Assembly (NCBI GenBank): GCA_964390045.1
Contig: CAYMGP010000035.1
Location: forward strand, 1 to 39,342
Length of the DNA: 39,342 nucleotides
Reading direction: 5' to 3'
DNA from: an uncultured Spirochaetaceae bacterium
GTDB taxonomy: Bacteria; Spirochaetota; Spirochaetia; SZUA-6; DRHE01
In this document: piece by piece, positions 6,850-38,945 of the stretch
Position numbering within the stretch: position 1 is the stretch's first letter
How the letters are laid out: each line of letters opens with the position of its first letter
Position numbers and translations under genes: made by a program
Notes under the pieces: model-generated
Databases searched by the model: none
Told to the model about the DNA's origin: nothing
What the model saw: only the letters and a program-made list of their open reading frames with translations

Positions 6850-6910
6850 CGCCTCAGATCTCCTGATGCCTGTTGCAGCATGGATAGTTACAGATTACTA
6901 TCAATAACAG

Positions 6911-7540: not shown

Positions 7541-7584
7541 GAAATGAGCGGGCCGCTTCATCAAATAGGGGAGAGCGAGTACAG

Positions 7585-21509: not shown

Positions 21510-24500
21510 ATGAAGACTTGGACCAAGAGAGCCTCCATTACGATACTCCTTATAAGCGTATTACTGGCCGCCGTTAACTGTAAGAATCCGTTCACTCAGA
21601 TCGGCCTGGGCGACAAGGTCGATCTGGAGGTTCCGGACCTCGCCGTAACCAGCCACGGCAATGGAGGGTATGTCGGCGGGACAATTGCACTGACCGGTAC
21701 CTATGCCGACGACATCGATGTGGCGAGCATCCGAATTTCAATCGCCGGCGAGGCTTTCGCCGAGGCCACGGTCAACCCGAACAACACGTGGAGTTTCACA
21801 ATTGACACCACGACTTTTACAGATGGTGAAAAGGAGCTGGTCATTTTGGTAGAGGATTCCTCGGCAAAGGTGATCGAAAAACGCCTACTTCTGTTTTTCG
21901 ACAACAAGCCGCCCCTCGTGCTGGTCAGCGTTCCCTTCAACTACGACCCGGCCAACAACGCCTTCAACGGGACTTTCAGTATCAAGGGCGACGCCTACGA
22001 CGCCTTCGGGATCCAGGAGGTCACCGTCGAGCTGAGGGATATCACCGATCCGGCCAACAAGATCGTGGCCGCCGCGGCCGGCACAAACAGCTGGAGCGCG
22101 ACCTTCGACAGTACGACCCTCTCACCCCAGAACGGCGATTTCTACGTCATCGTCACGGCCAAAGACAAATCGGACAACGCCAACAGCTATGTTTTCCACT
22201 CCTACGACATCTACGATTGGTACGAGACCAATCATCCGAGCAATATAGAGACCGTTACGGTGGAACAGCTGTACAGCATGGACCAGGGCGTGGACGAGGG
22301 CCTTCTGCTGAAGCCCGCCGATCTGCCCGCCCTGCAGAAACTTCCGCCTGTCTCCGGATCGGAGCTGATAATCAAGATCGACCAGGCGGAAGACCTTCCC
22401 AAGTTTGTGATAAGCAACCCGGATGAGAACTCCTCCCCGGCCGAAAACATCATCGGGGCCAGCGCCAATGCCATCGGCATCGTGGAGGACGATGACGGGG
22501 TGAATCCGAGCACAATCGAGATCAGCATCGACGGAGGTGCCTGGGAGTCTCCCACCCAGATCATTCCGAACACGGGATATCCGCTCTCGGTTCGCTGGCA
22601 GTACGATTTGCCCGCTCTTAGCGAAGGGCTGCACGACATACAGGTGCGGGCTCAGGATATGTACGCGAAGTCGAGTTCCAGCCCGCTGGTGGGATTCACC
22701 ATCGATACAGGCGCCCCGGCCGTAGCGGTTGATACCCCGGATCAGGGCAGCTATCACAGCGGCGACTTCCTGATTACGGGAACGGCCTCCGATCCCCAGG
22801 GTGTGACCGAGGTGAAGGTCAGCACGGACGGGGGTAGCAGCTACAACGATGCCAACGGCCTGGGTTCCTGGGACTACCTGGTAACCGTGCCCGGCGACGG
22901 CTCGTGGGACGGGAACCAAACGATCAAGGTGCTGGCCAAGGACGGCTCGGGAAAAACGGCCTACACCAACCTGCAGGTTATTATCGACACGGAAGACCCG
23001 ATCGTGAGCTTCCTCACCCCGGGCAACTCCGCCACGGTGAACGGAGAGGTTTTACTCAAGGGGGTTTCTTCAGACAACACCCAGGTGAGCAAGGTTGAGC
23101 TCAAGATCGGCAAGGTTGATCCCTGGATCGAGATGAGCGGCACCTACAACTGGGAGTACACGATAGACAGCGTGAGCTACGCCAACGACACCCACTCCGA
23201 CCAAACCCCGCCGGCCAGCGGCGTCTGGAAGCTGAACATTCAGGCCCGGTCCACCGACGTGGCCGGCAACGTCACAGTGCTCGGCAACTACAACCTGTTC
23301 ATCGACAATGACATGGACAAGCCTACGGTCAACATCGTTTCTCCGGCCGACCTGCAGAACATAGGCGGTTCGGTGCTGGTCAACGGCACGGCCTTCGACG
23401 ACGATGCCGTGCAGAAGGTGCAGATGAAGCTCGATCTGGACAACGACGGACTGTTCACCAATCAATACAGCCTGAACGGAGACGCGGACTACGACGATCC
23501 GTTCGAAAAGGAAACCGAGTGGTACGATATCAGCGGGATCACCACCTGGACCCAGGAGCTGAACACGGCCGGCGAGCTCTACCAGACCGACGGCAACAAT
23601 GACGGCTGGATCACGGTGCGGGTGCGCGCGGTGGACATCAACACGGTGGAAGGCAATCCTCAGGAAATCAAGATCCACTTCGACGACACGATTCCCCGCT
23701 TCGAGAACATCAGCCACGCTTCGGGCGACTACGTCAAACAGACCTTCAACCTGACAGCCGATGTTCTGGACGACGTCGCGGTGGCCGATATCTACATCAG
23801 CTACGACGGCGGGGTAAACTACGACGATGTGCTCAACGATCCGAGCTACAGCGGGATGTTCAGCGTGATCCCCGACGGCTACCACATCGACATTCCCATC
23901 GACACCTCGGCGACCTCGAGCGGCATTCTCTACCTGCGCCTCAAGGTAGTGGACAATGCCAACTTCCAGAAACTGAACTACATCAACCTCAATGTTGATA
24001 ACGTATATCCAACAGGCGCCTATCCGGGCGACAGCATGGACATCTACGGCGCCGACATATTTTCCCGTGTTCAGGGCACGGCCGAAGATACGGGCAGCGT
24101 CAGCGGGATCGAGGAGATCCACGTCTACTTCGTCCGCGGCGCGAATGTTTACAATCCTCTGACCGGAGCGACAAGCGCCTGGGTACTCAATGACTTCGGT
24201 GTCGACGGCGGCGGAAATGCGCCGTACACGACGGATCCGAGCTTCAAGATCCTCATCGACAACCGCTACGAGCTCGGAGACGACAACGGCAGCTTCGGCG
24301 ATCTCGACGGTCACGACGAGTCCCTGACGGTCGGCGGATCGACGTACAACTGGTGGGCGGAGTTCGACTCCACCAAGATAAGCGACGGCACGATCGACAT
24401 CCACTATGTGGTCTTCGACAACGCCGGCAACGGACATCACTATCTGAAGCCCGGATTTATCAAGAACCACAAGCCCTCGATCACCTCACTGACGGTGGGC

Positions 24501-26906
24501 AGCGATGTGGACATGAGCAATGACGTTGAGGTTGATGAGCGGTTTCCATACGTGGGATCGTTTACAGCCCGCAACAAGATGTATATCGCGATCGTCGCCG
24601 ACGACAACAATCCTCCCGGCCTCAGCTACGAGATCATCCACAATCCGGCCGGCTATAACAACACGGTCTTTACGTCTTCCTCCGGGCAGTTCTTTATCAC
24701 CGCCTCGCCCGAGTACGATGACGGACCCACGGATTTCCTCTGCAGGGTCACGGACAGCGACGGCATCGTGGTGGAAACGACGATCCTGGCCACGATCGAG
24801 AACGAGGATGCAGTGGATCCGGCGGTAACCATCGAAGCCCTGGTGGACGGTGACGCCCCGACGGGACACATTGAGCTATACGACGACAGCCTGTTCGACG
24901 GTCCTCCGGACGCCGATGTCAGCGGCACGATCGTGCTGCACGGCACGGCAAGCGACAACCAGCGGATCCAGTCGATCCAGGTCAAGATTACGAATTTCGA
25001 CGCGGGCAATGGTCCGGGCAATTACCACCCAGTGGCCACCTGGTCCGGCGGCCATCTCGATGATTCCGGCGATGACAATTTCACCATCATCGACCCGGAG
25101 CTTTCCGAAGCGGTCGGGCACCAGATAAAATGGGAATACTCGTGGGATACGAGCGGGGTGACCAATTCGGCGGCCAAGAACATAAGCGTGGAGTTCAAGG
25201 TGACGGACTTCGCCGCGCCGGTGCGAACCAAAAGCGACACCAAGTACTACGACGTGGTGCCCTACATCGCCGCGGTTTCAACCCAGACGGGCGGAATCAA
25301 GGACGGCAACATCCGGGCCGCCTCCGGAAACTACTCGATCCGCCAGAACCTGGTAGACAACTCGGATCTGATTACCTTGACGGGCTACAACCTGCAGCCT
25401 ATCACCGGGGGTGTGCGCGTTTCCAGCGATCCCGATGGATTGGTCGGCACCACCCTGCAGGGAACCTCCCTTACGGTGGACAGCTCGGGCATACCCTGGG
25501 AGGTGCTGGTGGTGCGCAAGGACACCGATCGATCCGGGTACCTGACAGTTGTAGCCGGAACGGCCGCCGATCCGATTCCCAGCCTGAACAACGTCAACGA
25601 CAACTCGCAGAGCTACAATCAGGAACCGGACATCTACTCCAAGAACGATCTGCTGACCGACGACCGCTACCTGCGTCTGTTCGAGGTCACGGAAACGGGC
25701 TACGACAACGGCTACTATCCCGCCATGATCATGAACGGGGATAATCCCGTGTTCGCCTACTGCGAGGACAACAGCGGGGAAGCCCGCAGAAACGCTACGA
25801 CTATGGGCGAGGGGTGGTACCACAGGATGAGCGCCTTGACCCGCGACGGCGTGGACAACTACTATCAGGTTTCCGTGCACGACGCCTTCGGCAACAGCCG
25901 ACACGGCCACCTCAACATCTTCTACAACAACTACGGGGGGCGTATCTATCCCAACAACTGGCCGGAGTCGGCCGGGGACGGCAACAATGTCATCGCCCTG
26001 GACAACATCACGTACAGTGGTACCAAACTCAACCGCTTCCACTACCCGCGCTTGATCGCGGTGGGCGACGACACAAAAGCTCAGGTATATCTGAGCTACT
26101 ACGACGACGAACCGTCGATCGAGGATCTTATCATCCGCGTCTTCCAGATAGGCACCAACTGCGACGGCACCGAGCTGACCAATCTGGCCGCCGGCGTGGA
26201 CAGCAATCAGAACGAAGCCAACGGCGACGGAACCGCTCCAGGAAGGAACACGCTGGCCGGTTCGGCGAGCAAATACTTCGACATGGGGTTGACCTCGGGC
26301 GGGGACCTGGTCGTAGCCTACTACGACGAGATGGCCAATCGATTGAAGGTCACCTACAATGAGGATCCCGTCAACGCCTCCGGTCTGTACGGCGGAAGCT
26401 TTCCGATTCATACGAGCATGGACACGACGTACAACGGGGCCCACGTATCCCTGGCCGTGGACACCGCGGATCACATCCATATCGCCTACTACGATTCGGC
26501 CAGCGCCGATCTCAAGTACATCTACCTCGACAGCTACAACGACAGCACCCCGGACATCGCACGGGTCGATGCCTATCACTCGGTAGGCTTGTGGACCGAC
26601 ATCCAGGTCGATTCTTCGGGAATACCCTACATCGCCTATTACAACAACTCGGAGAACGGCACGGTGGATTCGATAAAACTGGCTTACTTCCTCGGCAGTC
26701 TGCCCACGGTCACCGACGGAGTGGACGGCTCGGGCAACATCACGGGGAACTGGGAATGTATGACCGTTCCCGTAACGGGTGTGCCCCGCGGCGGCCTGCC
26801 CCAGTTCAACAGGGTAAGTCTGGGCTTCGACGCCTCGGGCGATCCGCTGCTGGGCTACCTGGCCGATGATATCGAGTATTCGAGGATGCTTCCCGAGCTT
26901 CCCTAG
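21510..26906 (+). CDS. Giant (1798 aa) surface lipoprotein with many Ig-like (Big-type) repeat domains and a C-terminal repeat region
   Basis: Signal peptide plus a Cys (LLAAVNC). Recurring domain signature G[TA]xDdxxVxxVxv. The C-terminal approximately 200 aa contain repeated (I/V)AYYD ... LK(V/Y) strand-like units. Confidence 0.6.
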   Translation: MKTWTKRASITILLISVLLAAVNCKNPFTQIGLGDKVDLEVPDLAVTSHGNGGYVGGTIALTGTYADDIDVASIRISIAGEAFAEATVNPNNTWSFTIDTTTFTDGEKELVILVEDSSAKVIEKRLLLFFDNKPPLVLVSVPFNYDPANNAFNGTFSIKGDAYDAFGIQEVTVELRDITDPANKIVAAAAGTNSWSATFDSTTLSPQNGDFYVIVTAKDKSDNANSYVFHSYDIYDWYETNHPSNIETVTVEQLYSMDQGVDEGLLLKPADLPALQKLPPVSGSELIIKIDQAEDLPKFVISNPDENSSPAENIIGASANAIGIVEDDDGVNPSTIEISIDGGAWESPTQIIPNTGYPLSVRWQYDLPALSEGLHDIQVRAQDMYAKSSSSPLVGFTIDTGAPAVAVDTPDQGSYHSGDFLITGTASDPQGVTEVKVSTDGGSSYNDANGLGSWDYLVTVPGDGSWDGNQTIKVLAKDGSGKTAYTNLQVIIDTEDPIVSFLTPGNSATVNGEVLLKGVSSDNTQVSKVELKIGKVDPWIEMSGTYNWEYTIDSVSYANDTHSDQTPPASGVWKLNIQARSTDVAGNVTVLGNYNLFIDNDMDKPTVNIVSPADLQNIGGSVLVNGTAFDDDAVQKVQMKLDLDNDGLFTNQYSLNGDADYDDPFEKETEWYDISGITTWTQELNTAGELYQTDGNNDGWITVRVRAVDINTVEGNPQEIKIHFDDTIPRFENISHASGDYVKQTFNLTADVLDDVAVADIYISYDGGVNYDDVLNDPSYSGMFSVIPDGYHIDIPIDTSATSSGILYLRLKVVDNANFQKLNYINLNVDNVYPTGAYPGDSMDIYGADIFSRVQGTAEDTGSVSGIEEIHVYFVRGANVYNPLTGATSAWVLNDFGVDGGGNAPYTTDPSFKILIDNRYELGDDNGSFGDLDGHDESLTVGGSTYNWWAEFDSTKISDGTIDIHYVVFDNAGNGHHYLKPGFIKNHKPSITSLTVGSDVDMSNDVEVDERFPYVGSFTARNKMYIAIVADDNNPPGLSYEIIHNPAGYNNTVFTSSSGQFFITASPEYDDGPTDFLCRVTDSDGIVVETTILATIENEDAVDPAVTIEALVDGDAPTGHIELYDDSLFDGPPDADVSGTIVLHGTASDNQRIQSIQVKITNFDAGNGPGNYHPVATWSGGHLDDSGDDNFTIIDPELSEAVGHQIKWEYSWDTSGVTNSAAKNISVEFKVTDFAAPVRTKSDTKYYDVVPYIAAVSTQTGGIKDGNIRAASGNYSIRQNLVDNSDLITLTGYNLQPITGGVRVSSDPDGLVGTTLQGTSLTVDSSGIPWEVLVVRKDTDRSGYLTVVAGTAADPIPSLNNVNDNSQSYNQEPDIYSKNDLLTDDRYLRLFEVTETGYDNGYYPAMIMNGDNPVFAYCEDNSGEARRNATTMGEGWYHRMSALTRDGVDNYYQVSVHDAFGNSRHGHLNIFYNNYGGRIYPNNWPESAGDGNNVIALDNITYSGTKLNRFHYPRLIAVGDDTKAQVYLSYYDDEPSIEDLIIRVFQIGTNCDGTELTNLAAGVDSNQNEANGDGTAPGRNTLAGSASKYFDMGLTSGGDLVVAYYDEMANRLKVTYNEDPVNASGLYGGSFPIHTSMDTTYNGAHVSLAVDTADHIHIAYYDSASADLKYIYLDSYNDSTPDIARVDAYHSVGLWTDIQVDSSGIPYIAYYNNSENGTVDSIKLAYFLGSLPTVTDGVDGSGNITGNWECMTVPVTGVPRGGLPQFNRVSLGFDASGDPLLGYLADDIEYSRMLPELP

Positions 26907-26959
26907 AACAACCGGTTGGCGGATTGCATGATGGCTTTGCAGATTAGATAGGAGGCAGG

Positions 26960-29900
26960 ATGAAGCAGATCGCTATTGCAGCTCTTGTTTTTATTGCAGC
27001 GGCTTTCTGGGCGTTCGGACTTGGCGATCCCGAGGCGGGAGAATACGAAGCAGTCAACGGCTTGGAGAACTGGGACCACAGCATCGATATATCCGAATAC
27101 GAGGAGGGGAAGTACAACCTGATCATCCGCGGCACCGATGCGGCGGGAAACATCCAATACCAGGGTCCGTACAACGTATTCGTGGATCCGGCATCCGACC
27201 TGCCCGTGCTGCGTATTTCCAATCCGACGCCTGAAATGAGGGTGGGCGGCAGCCTCAATATAGTTGGCGCGAGCATCGATGACGACGGTGTACAAAGGGT
27301 TGAGATCCAGCTCGATGAGGGCGAGACCCGCACCGCGGAGGGCGCGGAGTTTTGGTCCCTTCGTCTCGATCTGGAGGGAATGGCCGACGGACGGCATACG
27401 ATCCGGGCCTGGGCGGTGGACGTCAACGGCAACGCCGGGGAGCCTCAGGAGGTCGCATTTCATCTCGACAGGCGGGCACCGCTGGTCGAGGTCGTCTCTC
27501 ACCAGAACAGCGCCCTGGTTTCCGGGACGGTTGTTCTCGAGGGTTACTTGCGCGACGCCAACGGCGTGAGCTCTCTGGCTTACAGCAGGCAGCGAGACGG
27601 TGCCTACGAGCCTCTCAAGATCTCCTACGATAAATCCGAGAAGCGATACAGCTTTGATTTGAAGATAGACACGGAAGAGCTGGTGGACGGTCCGCAAGTT
27701 TTCTGGTTTCGGGCCCAGGATACGACGGGATCAACAGCCTACCTGGCTTTCGCTCTGTTTGTAAACAATGAGAAGCCGCAGCTCGAGATCCTCTCACCGC
27801 AACAGGATAAAACCGTGAACGGCAGGATTCTGGTAGTGGGCAGGGCCCGCGACAGAATCGGCCTGAAATCCCTTTCCTACGATCTGGGTGGCGGGGAGAG
27901 CGGGGAGATCGAGCTGGTGCCTGGGAATCCTTTCTGGACCCAGGAGTTCGATTTGACGGGACGAAAGGCAGGAAACCTGCAGATAGCCTTCTCTTTAGAA
28001 AATCTGACAGGAGGAAGGAGCAACGAGAAACTCAAAGTCCGTCTGGATCCCGAATCGGACAGGCCGCGGGTTCTTTTCGCCGCACCGAAGCAGGACAGTG
28101 TTCAACCCGCGTCGTTCGAGGCCAGCGGCCACGTTCTCGATGACGACGGTGTACAGAGCATAGAAATCTCATTGGATGGATCAAATCCCAAGACAGTCTC
28201 TACAGAGGGTGCTTTCAGCGTCCCCTTTTCCGAGATCCCGGCGGGTCGCCATACTCTGATGGCTCGCGCAGTGGATATCCACGGGACGGCGGGCGAAGCG
28301 GCGGAACTCCAGTTCACAGTACGAGGAGAAAAACCTGTTATCGCCTTGACGGAGGTGAAAATCGCCGACGCCACGCACTCTTTTACCCCCGGTTTTCTCA
28401 TCGCTGCCGAACAAAAAGCAGCGCTCAGCGGCGAGATACGCTTTGCCGGGACCTCGATCAAGGCGGAGTACAGCCTGGGCGGCCGCGATTTCAAAGGATT
28501 GAGCCTGCGTAAGGCGGCGGAGGCGGACAGAAGGACTTTCGAAATCCCCCTGCCCAAGGATTTCGCTCCCGGCAGAGTCGATGTCCACATCCGTGCCACG
28601 GACGGCGTCGATGCGGCAGGAGAGTACAAAGGATTTGTTTTTCTGGGAAGCATCGAGGAGGCGCCCGCCGAGGTGATGTTCGTCGATGCCCGGATCGATG
28701 AGGAGGGCAGGGTTGCGCTGGACAGCGGACAGCCTCTGATCGGTTTCGTCCCCGGTTCGGTTGGCTCGGTCACGATCGAGCCGGAAACGGACCTGCTCCG
28801 GGTGAGTGCAGAAGGCTCGCTGGTGCGTATCGATGCGGTCAAGCCCGGGGTGAGCGAGCCCTTGAAGGTAAAGGCTGAGATCGGAAGTACCACGGTGAGC
28901 TCGGCGGCTCTGCGCTTCGTTACCGATGGTGAGCCTCCCGCAATGCAGGTCGCCCAGCCGGTAGTTGGATCTTGGTTGGGACAGAGCATGGTGCTCGAGG
29001 GAACGGTGAGCGATGCCAGCGGCGTTCGCAGCCTCGAATACACGCTCGGAGAAGATGAGTCTTTTACGGCGCTCGAGTTGAGCGCAACCGAGCCGGCAAC
29101 CAGCTTCTCAACGACAATTTCGTTGGGAGCGGTGGCTGAAGGGGCGTTTCTGTTCGTGTTAAGAGCCGTCGATCAGGCGGGCAATACAGCTATTGAGCGT
29201 ATACCCCTGTACAAAGACATCACCCGGCCGCTGCTGACCCTCGTCGCTCCGGGGACCGAGGATGAGCTCAATGGGTTGATTACTCTCGTCGGACAGGTAG
29301 AGGAGGAGGGAAGAATCGCAGCGGTGGAGTACAGCGAGGACGGCAGTACGTACAACAAGATTGCTGCATCCGGCGATTTTCACTTTGACATCAATCTGTC
29401 TCGATTCGAGTCCTTTCCGGAAAGCTTCGAGCTGCGCGCCGTGGACGCGGCGGGCAATGTCGGTACCCTGGTTCCGGCGCTTACCGTGAACAGAGAGGCT
29501 GACAAGCCGGTAGTCGAAATACAGATTCCCGGGGACGGTGAGGTGATCAAAAACGATTTTTTCATATCCGGAATGGTTTTTGACGACGATCAGGTCGCCG
29601 GGATTTCCTACAGCCTGGACGGCGGCGAGTTTCAGGACCTGCCGCCCGGCAACAACTTCACGGTCCCCCTTTCCATCGAGAGCATCAGCGACAATGAGCA
29701 TGTCATCGAGGTACGGGCCCAGGATAGCGGCGGACTTGCCGGCGATGTAGTATCCTCGACCTTCCTTGTCTCGACCTCGGAGCCCGAATCCACCCTGCTC
29801 AGCCCGGGCATCGACCAGCATGTCCGCGGCGTGATAGAGCTTTCAGGAGAGAGCGAAGATCCAAACGGTATCGATACAGTTTTTATATCCTTCGACAATG

Positions 29901-31612
29901 GGCACAGCTTTCAGCTCGCCGAGGGAGCGGAGCAGTGGCGCTACCGGCTGGACACCCGGCTGTTGGCGGACGGCACTCATGCTCTACTCATAAAAGCAGT
30001 TGACAACACAGGCACCGAAGGACTTTTTTCTTCGACGATAAACACAGACAACCAAGCTCCGCAGATCATCGTAGATACACCCTCCGACGGAGAGGTTTTC
30101 ACAGAGAGCCTGCATCTCGACGGACGATCCACGGACAATATAGCTCTCATGTCTCTCACGGCTAGGTTGATGCTGGCAATCACGGCTTCCGAGCTCGGCG
30201 GGGATATACGGGAGTACGATCTCTCTACAGAGGGAATCATCAACAGAGAGCTGGACATCGCAGAGCTTGCCGGCGGATGGTACAATCTCAACCTGGCGGC
30301 GCTGGATGCAGCGGGCAACGAGAGCTATGTTTCCCGAAACATCCTGATACAGCAGAGCCCGGATGTCGAAAGGGTAGATCTGATGTTCCCGACCCCCGGC
30401 GAGACGCTGGCAGGCACCTTTTCTGTCAGCGGTCGCGTCGTGTCCGAGGAAACGACGCCCAGCGTGCTCGTGCTGCTCGACGGCACGATGCTCGATTCGG
30501 CGCCGGTCAATGAAAACGGATTTTTCTCTCTGGATCTCGGACCGGAATCAGTAGAACAGGGACTGCATACGCTGCAGGTGCAGGTGCCGCGGTCGCAAAG
30601 CTTTGCGCTCGTTTCAGAGGAACAAACGATACTGTACAGGCGTAGCGGTTCGTGGGTACAGATCACCAGCGCGGCGGGTGGAGATTTTATTAGCGGGCGG
30701 CCGCTGCTGGAAGGCCGGGCAGGGTACTTCCTCGATCCCGTGGATTCTGAAGACGGTGAGGAGCTCAAAGCACACAAGCGCGAGCTCGTTGAGCATGCCG
30801 TGAAAAGAGTCGAAGTAAGCTTCGACAACGGCAAAACATTTCAACGGGCCGACGGCAAAGAATCGTGGCGCTTCCGTGTGGAGACGCAGCAGCTGGAGAA
30901 CGGCTCCCTCGGGGTGCTGGTAAAAGCGTCGTTTGCCGACGGAGCCAGCGCCGTGACCAGGACGCAGCTTCAGGTGGATACCGAAGAGCCCAAGATCGTT
31001 CTACTCAGCCCCAGAGAAGGGGAGCGATTCAATGAGGAAATTCAGCTGCGGGGCACGGCCGACGATGATGAAACAGGGCTGCAGAGCGTAGAGATCAGTC
31101 TCAGGGAGGGAGACAAAAGCCGCTACGGCGTGCCGAAATTCATCCAGGGATTGTATCTCGACATCCATGCCATGGGCGCCACCTACGCCGACGTCGGTTT
31201 GGGGCTGACCTTTTTCGACGACAATGTAAAGCTACAGTTTCAAACGGGCATATCCCCTCCCGGACGGTTTTCCGGACTGGTAATAGGCGCCAAGTTGCTG
31301 GCAAATATAGCCTCCGTGCCGTTCGGCTATTTTTTCGGGCCCTCGTGGGATTTCTTTTCCATGTCGTTCGCCCTGGGCGCCGACTTTTCTTATTTCACTA
31401 TGTCCGGCGACAGCATCGCCTTCACTGGAGACGGTCTGGTTCTGGCCGCGGTGTTGGCACAGCTCGAGTTTGCCCGTTTCGAGCTTCGAGACTGGCGTTT
31501 CTTCGGAAGCTATTCGCTTTACAGCGAGATCCAGCTCTGGTTTATCTCCTCCGATGTGGAGGCTGGCCTGGCTCCGCGCCTCAGCTTCGGTTTCCGCATG
31601 GGCTTGTTATAG
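26960..31612 (+). CDS. Giant (1550 aa) secreted Ig-like-repeat protein, paralogous to the upstream gene, with a C-terminal beta-rich putative membrane-anchor domain
   Basis: RBS taGGAGGcagg. Signal peptide. At least 10 repeats of the G.a.DDDGVq.vEi.lDgG type. The last approximately 170 aa show an alternating hydrophobic pattern ending in FGFRMGLL. Confidence 0.6.
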   Translation: MKQIAIAALVFIAAAFWAFGLGDPEAGEYEAVNGLENWDHSIDISEYEEGKYNLIIRGTDAAGNIQYQGPYNVFVDPASDLPVLRISNPTPEMRVGGSLNIVGASIDDDGVQRVEIQLDEGETRTAEGAEFWSLRLDLEGMADGRHTIRAWAVDVNGNAGEPQEVAFHLDRRAPLVEVVSHQNSALVSGTVVLEGYLRDANGVSSLAYSRQRDGAYEPLKISYDKSEKRYSFDLKIDTEELVDGPQVFWFRAQDTTGSTAYLAFALFVNNEKPQLEILSPQQDKTVNGRILVVGRARDRIGLKSLSYDLGGGESGEIELVPGNPFWTQEFDLTGRKAGNLQIAFSLENLTGGRSNEKLKVRLDPESDRPRVLFAAPKQDSVQPASFEASGHVLDDDGVQSIEISLDGSNPKTVSTEGAFSVPFSEIPAGRHTLMARAVDIHGTAGEAAELQFTVRGEKPVIALTEVKIADATHSFTPGFLIAAEQKAALSGEIRFAGTSIKAEYSLGGRDFKGLSLRKAAEADRRTFEIPLPKDFAPGRVDVHIRATDGVDAAGEYKGFVFLGSIEEAPAEVMFVDARIDEEGRVALDSGQPLIGFVPGSVGSVTIEPETDLLRVSAEGSLVRIDAVKPGVSEPLKVKAEIGSTTVSSAALRFVTDGEPPAMQVAQPVVGSWLGQSMVLEGTVSDASGVRSLEYTLGEDESFTALELSATEPATSFSTTISLGAVAEGAFLFVLRAVDQAGNTAIERIPLYKDITRPLLTLVAPGTEDELNGLITLVGQVEEEGRIAAVEYSEDGSTYNKIAASGDFHFDINLSRFESFPESFELRAVDAAGNVGTLVPALTVNREADKPVVEIQIPGDGEVIKNDFFISGMVFDDDQVAGISYSLDGGEFQDLPPGNNFTVPLSIESISDNEHVIEVRAQDSGGLAGDVVSSTFLVSTSEPESTLLSPGIDQHVRGVIELSGESEDPNGIDTVFISFDNGHSFQLAEGAEQWRYRLDTRLLADGTHALLIKAVDNTGTEGLFSSTINTDNQAPQIIVDTPSDGEVFTESLHLDGRSTDNIALMSLTARLMLAITASELGGDIREYDLSTEGIINRELDIAELAGGWYNLNLAALDAAGNESYVSRNILIQQSPDVERVDLMFPTPGETLAGTFSVSGRVVSEETTPSVLVLLDGTMLDSAPVNENGFFSLDLGPESVEQGLHTLQVQVPRSQSFALVSEEQTILYRRSGSWVQITSAAGGDFISGRPLLEGRAGYFLDPVDSEDGEELKAHKRELVEHAVKRVEVSFDNGKTFQRADGKESWRFRVETQQLENGSLGVLVKASFADGASAVTRTQLQVDTEEPKIVLLSPREGERFNEEIQLRGTADDDETGLQSVEISLREGDKSRYGVPKFIQGLYLDIHAMGATYADVGLGLTFFDDNVKLQFQTGISPPGRFSGLVIGAKLLANIASVPFGYFFGPSWDFFSMSFALGADFSYFTMSGDSIAFTGDGLVLAAVLAQLEFARFELRDWRFFGSYSLYSEIQLWFISSDVEAGLAPRLSFGFRMGLL

Positions 31613-31631
31613 GACCACAGGCAACGCTATA
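31602..31631 (+). promoter_or_regulatory. Sigma-70-like promoter TTGTTA-N18-TATAAT, overlapping the stop of the upstream giant gene
   Basis: Read directly. It lies about 35 nt upstream of the acylase GTG start. An 8-bp inverted repeat AATCTCCA-N10-TGGAGATT starts inside the -10 box. Confidence 0.35.
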
Positions 31632-31666
31632 ATCTCCAGGCCGTTGATTGGAGATTCCTGAAAGCC

Positions 31667-34156
31667 GTGGTTGTTCTGTACATCCTGGTCGCAGCACTCC
31701 TTTTTTTCTGTCTCTATCTTCTCTACAGGTTCCGCCGTCCCCTGCCCAAGATCAAAGGCAGGCTGGAGATTGCCGGATTGAAACAGACCGTCGAGGTGAT
31801 CCGCGACCGCTGGGGCGTACCCCACATCTATGCCGCCGACCTTCACGACCTTTTCTTCGCGCAAGGCTACGTCCAGGCTCAGGACAGGCTCTGGCAGATG
31901 GAGCTCAACCGCAGGCTGGCCACGGGCAGGCTGAGCGAGATCTTCGGGCAACAAGCCTTCGAGGCGGATCGTTTCGTGCTCACCGTGGGGCTGAAGCGGG
32001 CCGCGGAGAACGACCTGGCCTGCATGTCCCCGGAAAATCGCACACTGCTTGATGCGTATCTGCGGGGTGTTAATGCCTTCATCGCAGCAAACCGGAGCAA
32101 GCTGCCGTTGGAATTCGCGCTGCTGGGCCTCAAACCGGAGCCCTGGCAGCCGATCGAAAGCCTGGCCTGGGTCAGGATGCAGGCCTGGCAGCTGTCGGAG
32201 AATTGGGACACGGAGCTCCTGCACGCCGCGTTGATAGCCAAGCTGGGTCCGGAGAGGGCCGCCGGACTGCACGGATGCTACCCTCGGATCAATCCCGTCA
32301 TCCTGGCCGAGCAGACCGTGATCGAGGCGGCCGAAAGGGTTCTCGAGTCCTTTCGCCATGCTGAGAAATGGTTTCCCGCCTGCGCTCTCCAAGGCATGAG
32401 CAACAGCTGGGCGGTGAGCGGCGAGCGGTCCCGGACGGGAAACGCCCTGTATGCCTACGATCCCCACCTCGGCCTGCACGTGCCTTCGCTCTGGCACGAA
32501 GTGCATCTGGTCTGCCCGCAGTTGCAGGCATCCGGTGCCACTTTTCCCGGTGTGCCCGGTGTGATCGTGGGGCACAACGAGCATATCACCTTCGGCTTCA
32601 CCAATTCATTTGCCGATGTTCAGGATCTTTATCTCGAACGTTTCAACCCGGACAATTCTATCGAGTACAGGGATCGCGGCAAGTGGCGGAAAGCAGAGAT
32701 TATCGTCGAAGAAATCAAGGTCAGGGGCGAGCGGGAGCCGCGCAGGATCGAGGTGGTTGTGACGCGGCACGGACCGGTGATCGGAGGGCTGCACAGCCTC
32801 GGCTCTCAATTCGAGGAAGGCCGCTTCGCCCTGCGCTGGGCCGGGTTCGACGGATTTGATGTCCTCGAAGCCCTGCTGCGCATGGATCGGGCCCGGAACT
32901 GGTCCGAGTTCTGCGCCGCCATGTCTGTTTGGGACACGCCCCCTGCCAGCGCCCTGTACGCCGATAAGGAAGGCAACATCGGCTACACCTTGACGGGTAA
33001 GATTCCTGTGCGCGGAGCGGGCAGCGGACTGGTTCCGGCGCCCGGATGGAGCGACGAGTATGAATGGCAGGGCTGGATTCCCTGGGAGCAGATGCCCAGG
33101 GAGTACAATCCTCAGAGGGGATACCTGGTCACGGCGAACAACCAGGTCGGAGGCCGGGAGTACCCCCACTACATCGGATTGGGAACCTGCAACGGCAACC
33201 GGGCCGCCCGGATCGCAGCCCTGATCGAGGGTAGGGATAAGCTCTCGCTGGAGGATTTCGCCCGTATGCAGGTCGACCTGTACTCAGAGCCGGCCCGGCG
33301 TTTTGCCGCCCTCCTCGATTCACTCGGAGCCGCGATCCTGGGGCAGGAAGTGCTCGCCCCGCTTCGGAACCGGGCAGAGCAGGCCCTCGCCCTGTTCGCC
33401 GGCTGGGACGGGGAAATGACCGCCTCCTCCTCAGCCGCGGCGCTCTATGCCGTTGCCGAGTACTTCTGCAAACGAAGGTTGTTCGAGCCCTGGCTGGGCG
33501 AGTTGACCGATCATTACTGCGGGGTGGGGCTGCACGTGTTCAGCTCGGTTTCCCTGTACAGGGAGTACAGCCACCTGCTGGCCCTCGAGATTCTTGAGAA
33601 TGAAGATCGGCGCTGGCTGGACACACCGGAGGGTGGGAAACGAAGCCGGGAGCAGGTACTGGCCGCGGCCCTGAAGGACGCCATCGTATTTCTCGTTGGT
33701 CGCCTCGGAAAAAATCAGAATAAGTGGAAGTATGGAAGCATACACAAGGCACGGTTCCACCATCCCTTGGGCAGCAGAAAACCGCTGCACCTGATCTTCA
33801 ATCCCAAACCTGTTCCCTATGGCGGCAGCGGGGATACGGTCTGGCAGGGTAAGCCTTTGGTGAAAATCCCTCCCGACAGGGGAGGCAGCTACAGTGCCAG
33901 CTGGCGTCAGCTTATCGATCTCTCCGATTGGGAAAAAGCGCAGGCGATTCATCCCCCCGGGCAGTCTGGCCATCCGGCCAGCCGGCACTACAAGGATTTT
34001 ACGGCTCTCTGGAGCTCGGGCGGATATCACCCCATGCTCTGGGGCAGGGAGCGGGTCGAGTCCGAGGCCGAAGCCAGGCTGCTGCTCGCGCCGGCAGGAA
34101 AGGAAGCGGGGAGAGAGGCAGCAAAGACAAAGCCCGGTTCGAAACGGGACATTTAA
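31667..34156 (+). CDS. Penicillin amidase / acyl-homoserine-lactone acylase family (Ntn-hydrolase, S45), N-terminal membrane anchor
   Basis: Alpha-subunit hallmark GVPHIYA ... DLFFAQGYVQAQDRLWQMEL. Beta-subunit N-terminal nucleophile region GMSNSWAVSGERS. The length is 829 aa. The hydrophobic N-terminus is VVVLYILVAALLFFCLYLLY. Confidence 0.85.
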   Translation: MVVLYILVAALLFFCLYLLYRFRRPLPKIKGRLEIAGLKQTVEVIRDRWGVPHIYAADLHDLFFAQGYVQAQDRLWQMELNRRLATGRLSEIFGQQAFEADRFVLTVGLKRAAENDLACMSPENRTLLDAYLRGVNAFIAANRSKLPLEFALLGLKPEPWQPIESLAWVRMQAWQLSENWDTELLHAALIAKLGPERAAGLHGCYPRINPVILAEQTVIEAAERVLESFRHAEKWFPACALQGMSNSWAVSGERSRTGNALYAYDPHLGLHVPSLWHEVHLVCPQLQASGATFPGVPGVIVGHNEHITFGFTNSFADVQDLYLERFNPDNSIEYRDRGKWRKAEIIVEEIKVRGEREPRRIEVVVTRHGPVIGGLHSLGSQFEEGRFALRWAGFDGFDVLEALLRMDRARNWSEFCAAMSVWDTPPASALYADKEGNIGYTLTGKIPVRGAGSGLVPAPGWSDEYEWQGWIPWEQMPREYNPQRGYLVTANNQVGGREYPHYIGLGTCNGNRAARIAALIEGRDKLSLEDFARMQVDLYSEPARRFAALLDSLGAAILGQEVLAPLRNRAEQALALFAGWDGEMTASSSAAALYAVAEYFCKRRLFEPWLGELTDHYCGVGLHVFSSVSLYREYSHLLALEILENEDRRWLDTPEGGKRSREQVLAAALKDAIVFLVGRLGKNQNKWKYGSIHKARFHHPLGSRKPLHLIFNPKPVPYGGSGDTVWQGKPLVKIPPDRGGSYSASWRQLIDLSDWEKAQAIHPPGQSGHPASRHYKDFTALWSSGGYHPMLWGRERVESEAEARLLLAPAGKEAGREAAKTKPGSKRDI

Positions 34157-34657: not shown

Positions 34658-35788
34658 ATGTATCGAATCAAAGCCTTTGATAGAATCCGCAATCTTCCCA
34701 AATCGGTATTGCCCCGGGATTTTCGGCTGAGCCCCTTGGCACTGCTGATCCTGGCTCTCTTTCTGGGAGCCGGGGTCTTCTGGCAGGTGACTGTCGGCCT
34801 GACCGTGCCGCCGATCGAGCTGGCCTACATCACCGTAGAGGTGATCATCGGTGCCGTGCTGCTGATGCTGCTTCCTTCCTGGGCGCTGGTTCTGGTTCTT
34901 CTTGTGGGCCTGTGGATCGGTATGTTCGCCCGCTACGGCAGTATCATGTTCCCTTTGACGGTGATGATCTCAGGCGGTTACCTCATCGCCCCGGTATTTC
35001 AACTGGCCCATCACTGGGAGAAAGTGGTAATTCTGCGCCTTGGAAAGTACCACAGGCTGCGGGGGCCGGGAATCTTCCTGATTTTTCCCGTCATCGACCG
35101 GGTGACCCGCTTCGTGGACACCCGTATCCGGGCCACCGACTTCAGCGCTGAGAAGACGATCACCATGGACACGGTGCCGGTCCACGTGGACGCCCTGGCC
35201 TTCTGGATGATCTGGGACGCCACCAAGGCGATCCTTGAGGTGGAAAACTTCCTGGAAGCGGTTGTGCTGTCCGCCCAGACGGCGTTGCGGGATGCCATCG
35301 GCCGCCACGATCTTGCCGACCTTCTGGCCGAACGGGAGAAAATCGGCAAGGAGATCCAGAAGGTCCTGGACCGCAAGACCAATCCCTGGGGCATCACCAT
35401 CCTCTCCATCGAGTTCACCGATATCGTGATCCCCAAGGAGCTGGAGGACGCCATGAGCAAGCGGGCCCAGGCCGAACGGGAGCGCCAGTCCCGGGTCATC
35501 CTGGGTACGGCGGAGATCGAAATCTCAGACAAGTTCGTAGAGGCGGCCAAACGCTACAAGAACGATCCCACGGCCCTGCACCTGCGGGGTATGAACATGA
35601 TTTACGAAGGGATCAAGCAGCGGGGCACCATCGTGCTGCTGCCCTCCGGCGGCCTCGCCTCCATGTCCCTGGGATCGGTTCTGGATGATCTGGCCCAGGG
35701 CAAGCTTGGAGACGCCAAGGCGGCTAATGCAGGTACGGCGGCGCAGAGCTATGAATCAACCACTGAGAGCAAAGGAGAAGAGATATGA
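34658..35788 (+). CDS. SPFH/Band-7 (stomatin-like) protein with an extended multi-TM N-terminus
   Basis: SPFH core (KVVILRLGKYHRLRGPGIFLIFPVIDRV ... TMDTVPVHVDALAFWMI ... ITILSIEFTDIVIPKELEDAMSKRAQAERE). Three to four hydrophobic helices precede it. Confidence 0.8.
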   Translation: MYRIKAFDRIRNLPKSVLPRDFRLSPLALLILALFLGAGVFWQVTVGLTVPPIELAYITVEVIIGAVLLMLLPSWALVLVLLVGLWIGMFARYGSIMFPLTVMISGGYLIAPVFQLAHHWEKVVILRLGKYHRLRGPGIFLIFPVIDRVTRFVDTRIRATDFSAEKTITMDTVPVHVDALAFWMIWDATKAILEVENFLEAVVLSAQTALRDAIGRHDLADLLAEREKIGKEIQKVLDRKTNPWGITILSIEFTDIVIPKELEDAMSKRAQAERERQSRVILGTAEIEISDKFVEAAKRYKNDPTALHLRGMNMIYEGIKQRGTIVLLPSGGLASMSLGSVLDDLAQGKLGDAKAANAGTAAQSYESTTESKGEEI

Positions 35789-36468
35789 TCAAAGTCGAAA
35801 ACGTAACCAAAGACTACAAAGTCGGCCAGAGTGTAGTCCACGCTTTGCGGGGGGTATCCTTAAGCATCGAGAAGGGGGAGTTTCTCTCCATCGCCGGACC
35901 CTCCGGCTCGGGCAAAACGACTCTGCTAAACTTGATCGGCTGTCTGGACAAAGCCACCAGCGGGGAGATCTATATCGTGGGTGAGGCGGTCTCCTCCAAG
36001 AACAAGAAAGAGCTGGCCCTGCTGCGCCGGCAGAGGCTGGGCTTCGTGTTTCAGTCCTTCAATCTCATTCCCGTGCTCACCGCCTACGAGAATGTATCCT
36101 TCGCCCTGTCCCTGCTCGGCATCAACGGTACCGAAATCAAAGAACGGACCTACGCTCTTTTGGAGGAGGTGGGGCTCAAAGGGATGGAAAGCCGGAAGCC
36201 CGGAGAACTTTCCGGTGGACAGCAGCAGCGGGTAGCCGTGGCCCGGGCCCTGATCAAGGAGCCGGACATGGTGCTGGCAGACGAGCCCACGGCCAACCTG
36301 GACTCCGATACGGGTCATGAAATTCTCGACCTGATGATGGCCTTGAACGAGAAACACGGAACCACCTTCGTGTTTTCCACCCACGACCAGATGGTGATGG
36401 ACTACGCCCACAGGCTTGTGAGGCTGCACGACGGCGAGGTAACCAGTGATATGAGGGGGGAGTCATGA
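35785..36468 (+). CDS. ABC transporter ATP-binding protein (MacB/LolD type)
   Basis: Walker [10 protein letters not shown], signature [15 protein letters not shown], Walker [17 protein letters not shown] overlap with the SPFH gene. Confidence 0.9.
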
Positions 36469-37697
36469 GCTTTCTGCTAACCCTTGCCTGGAAAAACCTT
36501 TCCCGTTACAAACGGCGAACCCTGATCACAGCCTGCGCCCTGGCCTTTGGGATCGCCTTGTTTCTCTTTATGGACGGTATGCTGCAGGGGGTGGAGCGAG
36601 AGTCGGAACGTAATATAATCCGGTACGAAGCCGGTTCTGCAAAAATCATGACAACGGAATACCTGGAGGATATCAAGAGCATGCCCCTCAAACACGTTCT
36701 CGAAGATCCTCGGGCCGTGGAACAGGCCCTGGAAGGAGCCGGAGTCACCACCACACGTCGGACGGTTTTTGCCGGGGAGATCTTCTACGGCGAGGGCTCG
36801 ATGTACGTCAAGGTCATCGCCATCGATCCGCAGACCGACGAAAAGATCTATCGGCTCTCCGATACCCTGGCTCAAGGCAGATACCTGGAAACCGGCGAGT
36901 CCGGAGTCGTTTTGGGCGAGTGGCTGGCCCAAGATCTCGGCGTCGAGGTGGGGGATGAGATCACCATCCGCACCCGCACCCGCTATGGGGCCTTTCAGAC
37001 CCTCGAGCTGATCGTGGTTGGTGTATTGAACAGTCCCAACCCGGTGATCAACAAGGGCACGGCCTACGTTCCCCTGTCCCTGGCCGACGAGGCCCTGGAG
37101 ATGGAGGGGGCGGTTACCGAGATCACCCTGTTCTTTCCCGAATGGCAGGACCCCGAGGTCAAGGTAGAGAGCCTGCGATCCCGACTGTCCTCTTTCCCCG
37201 GAATCACGGTGGAGAGTTGGAAGGAGCTGGCCCGCGATTTCCTGATGTTCGCCCAGATGAAAAGCGCGGGCAGCAGCATCATCCTCTTCCTGGTTTTCAT
37301 CATTGCCGCGGTGGGCATCTCCAACACCATGCTCATGGCGGTATACGAACGGGTCCGGGAGATCGGGATGATGCGGGCCATGGGCATGAAGGACGGTGCC
37401 ATCCGTACGGCTTTTCTCTTCGAAGCCGGCGGGATCGGTGTGATCGGCACCCTGGCCGGTATTGTCATCGGTTTGGTGGCCAACTGGTTCATGGTCAACT
37501 ATGGTCTCGACTTTTCCGGTCTCATGGGAGAGATGGATATCGGCTACCGGGTAACCGGCATATTCCACAGCGCCTGGCACCCCCAGGCCTTCGTGGGCGG
37601 GTTCATTTTCGGGGTCTTCGCAGCCATGGTGTTCTCCTTTATTCCCTCATCACGGGCTTTGAAGATGCAGATCACCGAATGTCTCCGTTACGAATAA
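36465..37697 (+). CDS. ABC transporter permease, FtsX/MacB-LolC/E type (4 TM plus a large periplasmic domain)
   Basis: N-terminal TM, a periplasmic domain of about 220 aa, and a C-terminal three-TM FtsX-like region (ISNTMLMAVYERVREIGMMRAMG). ATGA overlap with the ATPase gene. Confidence 0.8.
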   Translation: MSFLLTLAWKNLSRYKRRTLITACALAFGIALFLFMDGMLQGVERESERNIIRYEAGSAKIMTTEYLEDIKSMPLKHVLEDPRAVEQALEGAGVTTTRRTVFAGEIFYGEGSMYVKVIAIDPQTDEKIYRLSDTLAQGRYLETGESGVVLGEWLAQDLGVEVGDEITIRTRTRYGAFQTLELIVVGVLNSPNPVINKGTAYVPLSLADEALEMEGAVTEITLFFPEWQDPEVKVESLRSRLSSFPGITVESWKELARDFLMFAQMKSAGSSIILFLVFIIAAVGISNTMLMAVYERVREIGMMRAMGMKDGAIRTAFLFEAGGIGVIGTLAGIVIGLVANWFMVNYGLDFSGLMGEMDIGYRVTGIFHSAWHPQAFVGGFIFGVFAAMVFSFIPSSRALKMQITECLRYE

Positions 37698-37712
37698 TCT
37701 GAGGAGAAATTA

Positions 37713-38945
37713 ATGAAATTAGGTAGGATAGCCTTTAGAAATATCAGGCGAAACAAACGCCGCAGCCTGCTCTCCGGAACGGCCATTATGATAGCCACCA
37801 TGTTCATCACCTTCATGTTTTCGCTGATCGCCGGAATGCTGGGTGATCTTGAATCCAACGTCGTACGCTATGTATCCGGACACGTCCGTATCCGCCACGT
37901 GGAGTACGACGAGAACGAAGAGCTCAATCCGCTGCACCTCAGTGTGACCGAGTATGAAGAAGTGGTGCGAAGGATGGAATCTGTACCGGAAGTGGCGGCG
38001 GTCGTACCCCGTACCCGCTTTTTCACGGCCATCTACCGCAACGACCGTACCTACGGAGGCATGGGTCTCGGAGTGGATTTCGAGCGGGAAAAAACTGTGA
38101 TGAAGATCCAGGACGCTATCGAACAGGGACGCCTGCCCCAAATGGGGCAGAGGGAGATGGTCCTGTCCGCCGGTCTGGCCGAGGAGCTGGACCTGGACGT
38201 CGGCGAGAAGCTCACCCTGCTCACCAAGAACAAGTACATGGGGATGTCCGGCATGACCTTCACCGTGACCGGAATCGTACGCTTCCTGGTAGCCGGATTC
38301 AACGAGAGCTTCTTCCTCATGCCCATCGATACGACGGCCCGTTTTCTCAAGATGAGCGATGAAGTCACCGAGGTGCTGGTTGTGCTCAACGATTCCAAAG
38401 GGATCGATGAGTTTGTCGAGAAGGCGACGGGGATCCTCGCCGGCATGGATCGAGACAATCTTTCCGCCCAGCCCTGGAACAGGATCGGCTTCGCCGCCGG
38501 CTATATGCAGATGGCCCAAACCGCCTACGACGTGATCGCTCTGGTCTTCTTTATTCTCGCTTCCACGGTCATCGTCAACACCACCATGATGGTCATCTAT
38601 GAGCGCATGCGGGAGATCGGCACCGTAGCGGCCATGGGCATGACCCCGCAGGAGATAGTCCGTCTGTTCTTTCTGGAAGCCTTCTATATCGGTGCGATCG
38701 CCGCTTTTATCGGAGTGTTGCTCGGAATCGGCATCACCATACCTCTGTCCAAAGTGGGGATCGATCTGACCCAGTCCATGGAGGGCGTTGATCTGGAAAT
38801 CAATCCGGTGGTCTACCCCCAGCTGAACATCCGTTCCACGGTATTTGTCTTCTTCTATTCCACGATCATCGCTTCGCTGGCCTCGTTTATCCCCTCCCGG
38901 AGAGCGGCCAAGATCGAACCTGTGGAAGCGCTGCGGGCGATATAG
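37713..38945 (+). CDS. Second ABC transporter permease, FtsX/MacB-LolC/E type
   Basis: Same architecture (VNTTMMVIYERMREIGTVAAMG). GAGGAG RBS. Confidence 0.8.
   Translation: MKLGRIAFRNIRRNKRRSLLSGTAIMIATMFITFMFSLIAGMLGDLESNVVRYVSGHVRIRHVEYDENEELNPLHLSVTEYEEVVRRMESVPEVAAVVPRTRFFTAIYRNDRTYGGMGLGVDFEREKTVMKIQDAIEQGRLPQMGQREMVLSAGLAEELDLDVGEKLTLLTKNKYMGMSGMTFTVTGIVRFLVAGFNESFFLMPIDTTARFLKMSDEVTEVLVVLNDSKGIDEFVEKATGILAGMDRDNLSAQPWNRIGFAAGYMQMAQTAYDVIALVFFILASTVIVNTTMMVIYERMREIGTVAAMGMTPQEIVRLFFLEAFYIGAIAAFIGVLLGIGITIPLSKVGIDLTQSMEGVDLEINPVVYPQLNIRSTVFVFFYSTIIASLASFIPSRRAAKIEPVEALRAI

Follow-up and report, generated by a model that had tools for sequence, protein, structure and literature searches.

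The question raised by this locus is what a bacterium does with two adjacent genes for giant proteins built of immunoglobulin (Ig)-like modules. The genes lie in a 39,342-nucleotide stretch of DNA from an uncultured Spirochaetaceae bacterium (contig CAYMGP010000035.1; the whole stretch is referred to below as the window), and we call their products P1 and P2. The open reading frame (ORF) of P1 spans positions 21510-26906 (+ strand, 1798 aa) and that of P2 positions 26960-31612 (+ strand, 1550 aa), exactly the coordinates and lengths given in a preliminary description of two consecutive Ig-repeat genes. The two genes are 53 nt apart on the same strand, with an AGGAGG Shine-Dalgarno sequence preceding P2 and no terminator-like site found between them, and they are probably an operon that makes up a two-gene cell-envelope module of Spirochaetota. 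We report here that P1 is a predicted lipoprotein tipped by a seven-bladed β-propeller, that P2 is an Ig chain ending in an eight-stranded β-barrel, and that one Ig module of P2 is divided between the two ends of its chain. Conserved and confined to one lineage, this pair of giant envelope proteins has no functional annotation, and its terminal domains represent two new families, one of barrels and one of propellers, neither of which has been modelled.

Shared modules and different ends

Domain searches, which the preliminary description had proposed as a check of its Ig-repeat assignment, gave matches above the gathering cut-offs in both proteins. Pfam Big_7 (cut-off 24.1) was found in P1 at 3e-35 (121 bits) and in P2 at 8e-58 (193 bits), and Big_13 (cut-off 27) in P1 at 1e-10 (42 bits) and in P2 at 2e-26 (93 bits), while NCBIfam, whose matches were confined to the modules, recognised an OmpL47-type domain (4e-22) and Ca_tandemer (8e-20) in P2. 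A further check, whether an enzyme fold might account for the repeats, returned none from either Pfam or NCBIfam. With a hidden Markov model (HMM) of 91 positions, which we built from the window's own modules, 9 modules were counted in P1 and 13 in P2. The module signature is real but had been written one residue short; it reads G-[TA]-x-[SD]-D-x-x-x-V-x-x-V and belongs to the N-terminal strands of the Big_7 module.

P1 and P2 align with each other through these modules only, at 22-27% identity, and the only DNA repeats are three-copy echoes of 29-32 nt of a motif coding for DDDGV, so that a recent duplication or DNA repeats were ruled out as the origin of the pair. The earlier view of P1 and P2 as ancient paralogues captures this old kinship at the level of the modules and has to be widened, as the pairing is heterotypic and conserved: the two members differ in anchor and end domain (Table 1), and they occur in either gene order across Spirochaetota. 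No PDB sequence matched full-length P1 or P2, and Pfam at E<=1 found nothing in the propeller, the barrel or three unassigned stretches between modules. The P1 array has divergent stretches at residues 235-304 and 832-1126. The latter (positions 24000-24890) and residues 457-659 of P2 (positions 28325-28940) lie inside the arrays without a match to the module HMM or to Pfam (E<=1), and may be divergent modules or hinges.

Table 1 Features of P1, P2 and the adjoining acylase gene, with positions in the window.
Feature	Residues	Positions	Strand	Basis or remark
P1 predicted lipoprotein signal peptide, lipobox AAVN|C	Cys24	21510..21581	+	translation
P1 Ig-module array	42-1214	21633..25151	+	Big_7, Big_13, module HMM (9 modules)
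P1 IPT/Ig-like β-sandwich before the propeller	~1250-1360	25257..25589	+	AlphaFold2 (AF2) model
P1 C-terminal 7-bladed β-propeller	~1386-1798	25665..26903	+	blade motif (I/V)AYYD...LKY
P2 Sec signal peptide, no Cys, hence not a lipoprotein	 	26960..27019	+	translation; N-termini of homologues comparable
P2 N-terminal half Ig module	20-77	27017..27190	+	module-HMM positions 42-90 only
P2 intact Ig-module array, divergent stretch 457-659	82-1341	27203..30982	+	Pfam, NCBIfam, module HMM
P2 pre-barrel half Ig module	1344-1386	30989..31117	+	module-HMM positions 1-43 only
P2 linker R-x-GDK-x2-Y-x-VP-x-FIQGLYLD	1382-1401	31103..31162	+	joins half-module to barrel strand 1
P2 C-terminal 8-stranded outer-membrane β-barrel	~1395-1548	31142..31609	+	AF2 model
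Penicillin-amidase-family acylase	 	31667..34156	+	Pfam 1.5e-226, 755 bits; neighbour outside the conserved module

The β-rich end of about 170 aa that had been noted in P2 is a barrel which, in the AF2 model, is closed, antiparallel and eight-stranded, with all strands contiguous in the chain. This 160-aa domain matched no Pfam family at E<=1 (OmpA_membrane, OmpW, OMP_b-brl and others) and no PDB sequence. Its loops and turns measure 4-13 residues on both sides, and their lengths give no clue to orientation. The consensus C-terminus of the family is ...FGxRxxxF, whereas P2 of the window ends in ...FGFRMGLL. No other stretch of the family, the barrel itself included, is as conserved as the linker ahead of the barrel, most of whose columns reach >=90% conservation in an alignment of 83 sequences, which suggests that the linker is an interaction site.

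An Ig module divided between the two ends of P2

The first Ig segment of P2 is the second half of a module, and the last one, which directly precedes the barrel, is the first half of a module. Searched alone, the pre-barrel half matched positions 1-39 of the 70 of Big_7 and the N-terminal half positions 62-101 of the 102 of Big_13. A chimera of both halves gave a continuous match to Big_7 (positions 1-68 of 70) with 29.9 bits, and an intact module of the same P2 scored lower on this model, at 27.4 bits. Both halves were present in 146 of 189 non-identical P2-like proteins, which carry 10-17 modules, and most of the remainder were N-terminally truncated ORFs. Across the 146 homologues, column occupancy was 100% in columns 1-41 (the pre-barrel piece) and in columns 47-90 (the N-terminal piece).

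We used covariation to ask whether the two pieces behave as parts of one domain. Contacts were defined by mean-field direct coupling analysis of 1275 intact modules, in which the couplings between the two halves form β-ladder patterns (34-72, 36-70 and 32-74; 22-53 and 19-56) and also include the pair 26-75, and covariation between the split halves of 146 orthologues was measured as mutual information with average product correction. For the split halves, the area under the curve (AUC) was 0.92, 0.77, 0.72, 0.74, 0.71 and 0.70 at the top 10, 15, 20, 25, 30 and 40 contacts, respectively. Six intact orthologous modules, which served as positive controls, had mean AUCs of 0.87, 0.79 and 0.76 at the top 10, 20 and 30 (from 0.87 to 0.75 across the top 10-40 series), whereas 42 mismatched pairs of halves from the same proteins, the negative controls, had means of 0.71, 0.64 and 0.59 and maxima of 0.83, 0.73 and 0.68. 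Thirty random re-pairings of the halves never reached the split-half value. The two halves therefore appear to covary at intramodule contacts about as strongly as intact modules do, a result that we regard as supportive rather than conclusive, and which is compatible with pairing in cis and in trans alike and does not separate the two.

Judging from the sequences of the family, the two halves most likely pack as one Ig domain beside the barrel. In the AF2 model, the predicted local distance difference test score (pLDDT) was 49-68 in the pre-barrel half and >90 in the adjoining intact module and the barrel. We consider it unlikely that the halves instead stay unpaired, either as degenerate remnants, or because each is completed by another partner such as P1, or because the barrel or the linker stabilises them. 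Such a view could draw on the negative controls, whose AUCs are already at 0.6-0.7 and three of which (out of 42) attain the test value at n=20, but it has to contend with the retention of both halves, with matching break points, in the 146 homologues across orders, with their recognition as a full Big_7 domain when joined, and with a test AUC that lies in the range of the positive controls and above all negative controls at n=10, 25, 30 and 40.

The split Ig module of P2-type proteins is a new finding, and an Ig domain distributed over the two ends of a long chain is an unusual design principle. If the halves do assemble, they would represent a new bacterial way to closed or polymeric protein tethers, and a natural counterpart to engineered tools for split-domain ligation.

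A predicted lipoprotein partner with a terminal propeller

The precursor of P1 has a hydrophobic core followed by the lipobox Cys (...LLISVLLAAVN|C), and none of the 32 complete P1-like ORFs deviates from this Cys. The residue at -3 is Leu, Phe or Val in 30 of these 32 homologues, and the residue at -1 is Thr, Ser, Ala, Asn, Gly or Asp (one doubtful ORF start besides). P1 thus has the features of a lipoprotein precursor and is predicted to be lipid-modified at Cys24; the lipobox had been recognised from the start, and its Asn at -1, then thought unusual, is ordinary in this family. In each of these 32 proteins the Cys is immediately followed by x(2-6)-GLG-x2-VD-x3-P (positions 21579-21640 of the window). 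This motif resembles the last strand and linker ahead of every Ig module, and the mature chain of P2 in the window likewise opens with GLGD.

Beyond the Ig array, AF2 modelling of a 558-aa fragment of P1 placed the strands of a β-sandwich at fragment residues 12-117, and a motif of this domain, DVVPYI...NIR.A.G.YSI, is conserved in the alignment of P1 homologues. At the fold level, the C-terminal domain consists of seven four-stranded blades round a central axis. The propeller-like repeats that had been noticed at 26.29-26.70 kb are real and are only part of this full seven-bladed propeller (Table 1). P1-like proteins range from 1500 to >3400 aa in length. In the protein database, the propeller family is rarer than that of the barrel and was represented by 11 matches when a single sequence was used and by 27 when a profile was used, including one from Treponema primitia, where the contig begins inside the P1-like gene.

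In other phyla, the blade repeat, xxISYYDxxxxDLKYA, is shared by long proteins with several propellers (P0008-P0010 and P0145-P0154 in our set), some of which bear sorting domains of the type IX secretion system (T9SS; PF18962) or MYXO-CTERM tags, and one of which is labelled BNR_4. This is apparently a type of propeller repeat that has not been modelled.

Distribution and conservation of the pair

The P2 barrel marks a small and clearly delimited family: a search for it with HMMER over 1.84 billion representative proteins found only 242 clusters. All 150 clusters listed of these 242 have the barrel at the extreme C-terminus, and full-length entries have 1200-2600 aa. We identified 328 stretches of GTDB species genomes that encode a P2-type barrel, and all counts of loci given here rest on the best 80 of them, 79 of which are labelled Spirochaetota and one 'uncultured bacterium'. 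The carriers include Spirochaetaceae, Treponema, Treponemataceae, Breznakiellaceae, Sediminispirochaeta, Oceanispirochaeta, Alkalispirochaeta and Salinispira. Their habitats are sediments, salt lakes, termite guts and rumen.

In 14 loci the immediate upstream neighbour of the P2-like gene encodes a P1-like lipoprotein, and in 20 loci the immediate downstream neighbour does, so that the two adjoin in approximately 34 of the 80 loci, and they are nearby or divergent in several more. When all ORFs of the 80 loci were clustered, no third conserved gene, such as an usher, a chaperone or a secretion component, was found, the next family occurring in 10 loci. Homologues are named in databases as 'hypothetical', 'Ig-like domain-containing', 'large repetitive protein' or, spuriously, 'neuraminidase', and we found no account of a spirochaetal system of Ig chain, barrel and propeller in the searchable literature.

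The pair varies in several ways between genomes. Many Treponematales and Spirochaetales genomes have a downstream P1-like partner of >3200 aa, nearly twice the size of P1 in the window (L018, L023, L027, L033, L035 and L036, and likewise L038, L045, L054, L063, L076 and L079); most of these ORFs overrun the 10-kb flank, so that the C-terminus is visible in L079 alone and, in part, in L076. The P2-like barrel gene is duplicated in tandem in L044 (824-9318), L047 (6644-14980) and L052 (3-8431), and two P1-like genes are present at L077 (8092-17666); if the halves pair in trans, such paralogues could make mixed chains. In L007 (6188-10810; Spirochaetes bacterium RBG_16_67_19) there is no P1-like gene between RelA/SpoT and the P2-like gene, in which a stretch close to the start consists of unknown residues; the P1-like gene is probably missing through a gap or collapse in the assembly and not truly absent.

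Possible roles as a periplasmic scaffold or a surface structure

From this analysis we tentatively favour, as possible rather than probable, a role of the pair as a periplasmic scaffold or tether anchored in the outer membrane, and not as an exposed adhesin. P1 would be exported by Sec and lipidated at Cys24, and would consist of about 11 Ig-type modules, an IPT-like domain and, distal to the anchor, the propeller, which is its likely binding head. P2 would also be exported by Sec, and its OmpA/OmpW-like barrel would be placed in the outer membrane by the β-barrel assembly machinery (BAM); we infer that it is a BAM substrate because the family consensus ends in Phe, although P2 of the window ends in LL. 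About 12 intact Ig modules would hang from this barrel, and the split halves at the ends of the chain would either close it as a loop (cis) or join each molecule, head to tail, to the next (trans). Barrels of the OmpA/OmpX/OmpW type have both their N- and C-termini in the periplasm, and an eight-stranded barrel has no lumen for a polypeptide. A periplasmic N-terminal part followed by a C-terminal barrel is also the layout of the spirochaetal Tpr/Msp proteins and of the OmpM/SlpA tethers. Because the contiguous barrel of P2 is poreless and would have both termini on the periplasmic side, the Ig chain of P2 is expected to lie beneath the outer membrane, and if P1 and P2 interact, as the strict adjacency of the genes suggests, P1 would also act in the periplasm, together with P2.

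A more specific proposal, which we regard as speculative and rather unlikely as it stands, is that the split domain closes the 12-module Ig chain, of an estimated length of ~50 nm, as a loop or polymerises it, and that together with P1 this gives a spirochaete-specific periplasmic mesh, hitherto unrecognised and attached to the outer membrane. The outer membrane of spirochaetes is loosely attached and their flagella lie inside the periplasm. To our knowledge, spirochaetes do not have a tether of the Lpp type, and few structural proteins of their envelope are known beyond those of pathogens. If the proposal is true, the mesh could organise the spirochaete periplasm, by holding the outer membrane or by guiding the periplasmic flagella.

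Several observations weigh against a periplasmic scaffold. The sole ground for an interaction between P1 and P2 is the adjacency of their genes, and the covariation of the split halves is one test on one family of ~130 effective sequences, with a baseline of negative controls that is already at 0.6-0.7. Homologues have no informative annotation and nearly all come from uncultured organisms. Chain lengths are variable and far beyond the width of the periplasm, which disfavours a tether of fixed distance. Giant Ig-repeat proteins, and spirochaetal Ig lipoproteins such as LigA and LigB, are usually exposed at the surface. The module type is also found in OmpL47 of Leptospira, which is surface-exposed (PMC2698987). 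Furthermore, the propeller repeat has distant relatives in proteins that are sorted by T9SS or carry MYXO-CTERM and are thus extracellular.

The main rival is that the pair is a fibrillar adhesin of the cell surface, which is also possible, if somewhat doubtful. P1 would then resemble LigB as a lipoprotein of the surface, with an Ig stalk that holds out a lectin-like propeller towards substrates, hosts or other cells, and P2 would be either another surface fibre, anchored through its barrel, or an outer-membrane platform for P1. This would agree with the external location that is the general rule for giant Ig-repeat proteins, with the match of the propeller to lectin-like structures and the secretion of its repeat relatives, and with stalks that vary between 10 and 17 modules and between 1500 and >3400 aa. 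However, the contiguous, poreless barrel at the C-terminus offers no known route out for an N-terminal chain of 1390 aa, and if P1 alone were outside, it could meet P2 only via the barrel loops of 4-13 residues, which fits poorly with their strict co-conservation. The pair is also usually a single locus across free-living, hypersaline, termite-gut and rumen lineages, a pattern more like that of a housekeeping component of the envelope than of an adhesin for a particular niche, and the split Ig module is left without a role. The same topological problem would be met by a two-dimensional, S-layer-like surface lattice of P1 and P2, an idea raised in the preliminary description and one that we consider highly improbable. 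Two abundant-looking, giant, β-rich proteins are indeed co-encoded, and head-to-tail complementation of P2 could in principle generate a lattice, but neither protein contains an SLH, S-layer or other known lattice domain in Pfam or NCBIfam, each has its own membrane anchor, and long flexible Ig chains are atypical building blocks. It is improbable, too, that the pair is an exported enzyme system in which a lyase- or glycosidase-like propeller of P1 is catalytic and is positioned by the Ig chains, possibly in concert with the neighbouring acylase. The propeller has just 9-12% identity to lyase- and glycosidase-like structures and scores equally with non-catalytic WD40 proteins and lectins; the invariant residues in its family alignment are Tyr, Asp and Gly residues that belong to the blade repeat, with no obvious catalytic set; no enzyme family in Pfam or NCBIfam matches P1 or P2; and the acylase adjoins the pair only in the four closest relatives.

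Comparison with known systems

P1 has the same succession of anchor, stalk and head as the LigA and LigB proteins of Leptospira, which are spirochaetal lipoproteins with a long Ig array that gives way, in LigB, to a large C-terminal domain free of repeats. However, the modules of the Lig proteins are Big_2 and those of P1 and P2 are Big_7/Big_13, and P1 ends in a seven-bladed propeller and is paired with a barrel-anchored partner. As Big_2 (PF02368) had no match in P1 or P2 at E<=0.01, and the tandem Big_2 domains of the Lig family are thus lacking, membership of this family was ruled out.

The barrel of P2 falls outside the sequence families of the OmpA, OprF-N, NspA, OmpW and PagL barrels (no Pfam match at E<=1). 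Moreover, in OmpA and OprF the barrel is N-terminal and is followed by a periplasmic peptidoglycan-binding domain, whereas in P2 it is the C-terminal anchor of an Ig chain of 1390 aa. A barrel anchor and a long repetitive extension in one polypeptide are likewise seen in autotransporters and in intimin and invasin, where the extension is Ig-rich, but these barrels have 12 strands with a linker through the pore, and that of intimin is N-terminal, unlike the contiguous, poreless, eight-stranded and C-terminal barrel of P2. A classical autotransporter (type Va secretion, T5aSS) was ruled out for P2 by its 8 instead of 12 strands, with neither a linker helix nor an Autotransporter match, and an inverse autotransporter (type Ve secretion, T5eSS) by the C-terminal position of the barrel in all 150 clusters listed and the lack of Big_1. 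The OmpM/SlpA and Tpr/Msp proteins resemble P2 in their N-terminal periplasmic part and C-terminal barrel, but P2 has no SLH, coiled-coil or MOSP domains, its barrel is much smaller and its Ig chain varies in length.

Two known systems bear on the split module. The Hop adhesins of Helicobacter (BabA and SabA) have an 'interrupted' eight-stranded barrel, a domain built from both ends of the polypeptide, and share with P2 an eight-stranded anchor and end segments that form one domain around a large intervening region. In Hop proteins, however, it is the barrel itself that is split and the insert is an extracellular loop, whereas P2 has a contiguous barrel and the split affects its Ig module, on the N-terminal side of strand 1, which would be periplasmic. 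A Hop-type interrupted barrel was ruled out, given the contiguous strands (~1395-1548) and the match of the N-terminal segment to half an Ig module. In the donor-strand complementation of chaperone-usher and type V pili, an incomplete Ig fold is completed, as we propose for P2, by a segment from elsewhere, and this yields very stable polymers or caps. The pilins differ in taking one strand from the next subunit, while the P2 pieces are each about half a domain (3-4 strands) and belong to the same polypeptide; ORF clustering of the 80 loci revealed no usher or chaperone gene near P2-like genes.

The module type (Big_7/Big_13) and, at the fold level, both anchors and the head are already known. 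What appears to be new is the combination of a C-terminal eight-stranded barrel on a long Ig chain with an apparently obligatory, propeller-tipped lipoprotein partner, its restriction to Spirochaetota and the split Ig module.

Genomic neighbourhood

The surroundings of the pair are chromosomal, with genes for PGM, a histidine kinase, a rhomboid protein, RF-1, PrmC and RelA/SpoT upstream, and for the acylase, a Band7 protein and LolCDE-like proteins downstream. The acylase is weakly similar to PvdQ, and its N-terminus (VVVLYILVAALLFFCLYLLYRFRRP) is hydrophobic and resembles a membrane anchor more than it does a signal peptide that is cleaved off. It has a promoter-like site of its own at 31604-31633, a σ70-like TTGTTA-18-TATAAT (10/12 match) that overlaps the stop codon of P2. 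The possibility, put forward for checking in the preliminary description, that the acylase is syntenic with the pair in other genomes did not hold beyond the four closest relatives (L001-L004): in L005 the Band7 and Lol-like genes directly follow the pair, and the more distant loci are also without an acylase. With this distribution and its own promoter-like site, a functional link to the acylase was ruled out.

Positions 34658-38945 hold a Band7/HflK-like gene followed by genes for a LolD-like ABC ATPase (230 bits, under the cut-off of 308 bits) and two LolC/E-like FtsX permeases. Together they probably encode a system for lipoprotein release. It lies within a few kb of the giant lipoprotein gene, on the downstream side, but this proximity is probably a coincidence, because the synteny is confined to the closest relatives L001, L004 and L005.

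Elsewhere in the window, two ORFs of 236 and 271 aa (6854-7564 and 10322-11137, both on the - strand) have no Pfam match, and an ORF at 13-1281 matches the C-terminal portion of the model for the large subunit of NiFe-hydrogenase. A 670-aa ORF at 11122-13134 encodes a D12-class (Dam-like) adenine methyltransferase fused to an N6_N4 methylase domain.

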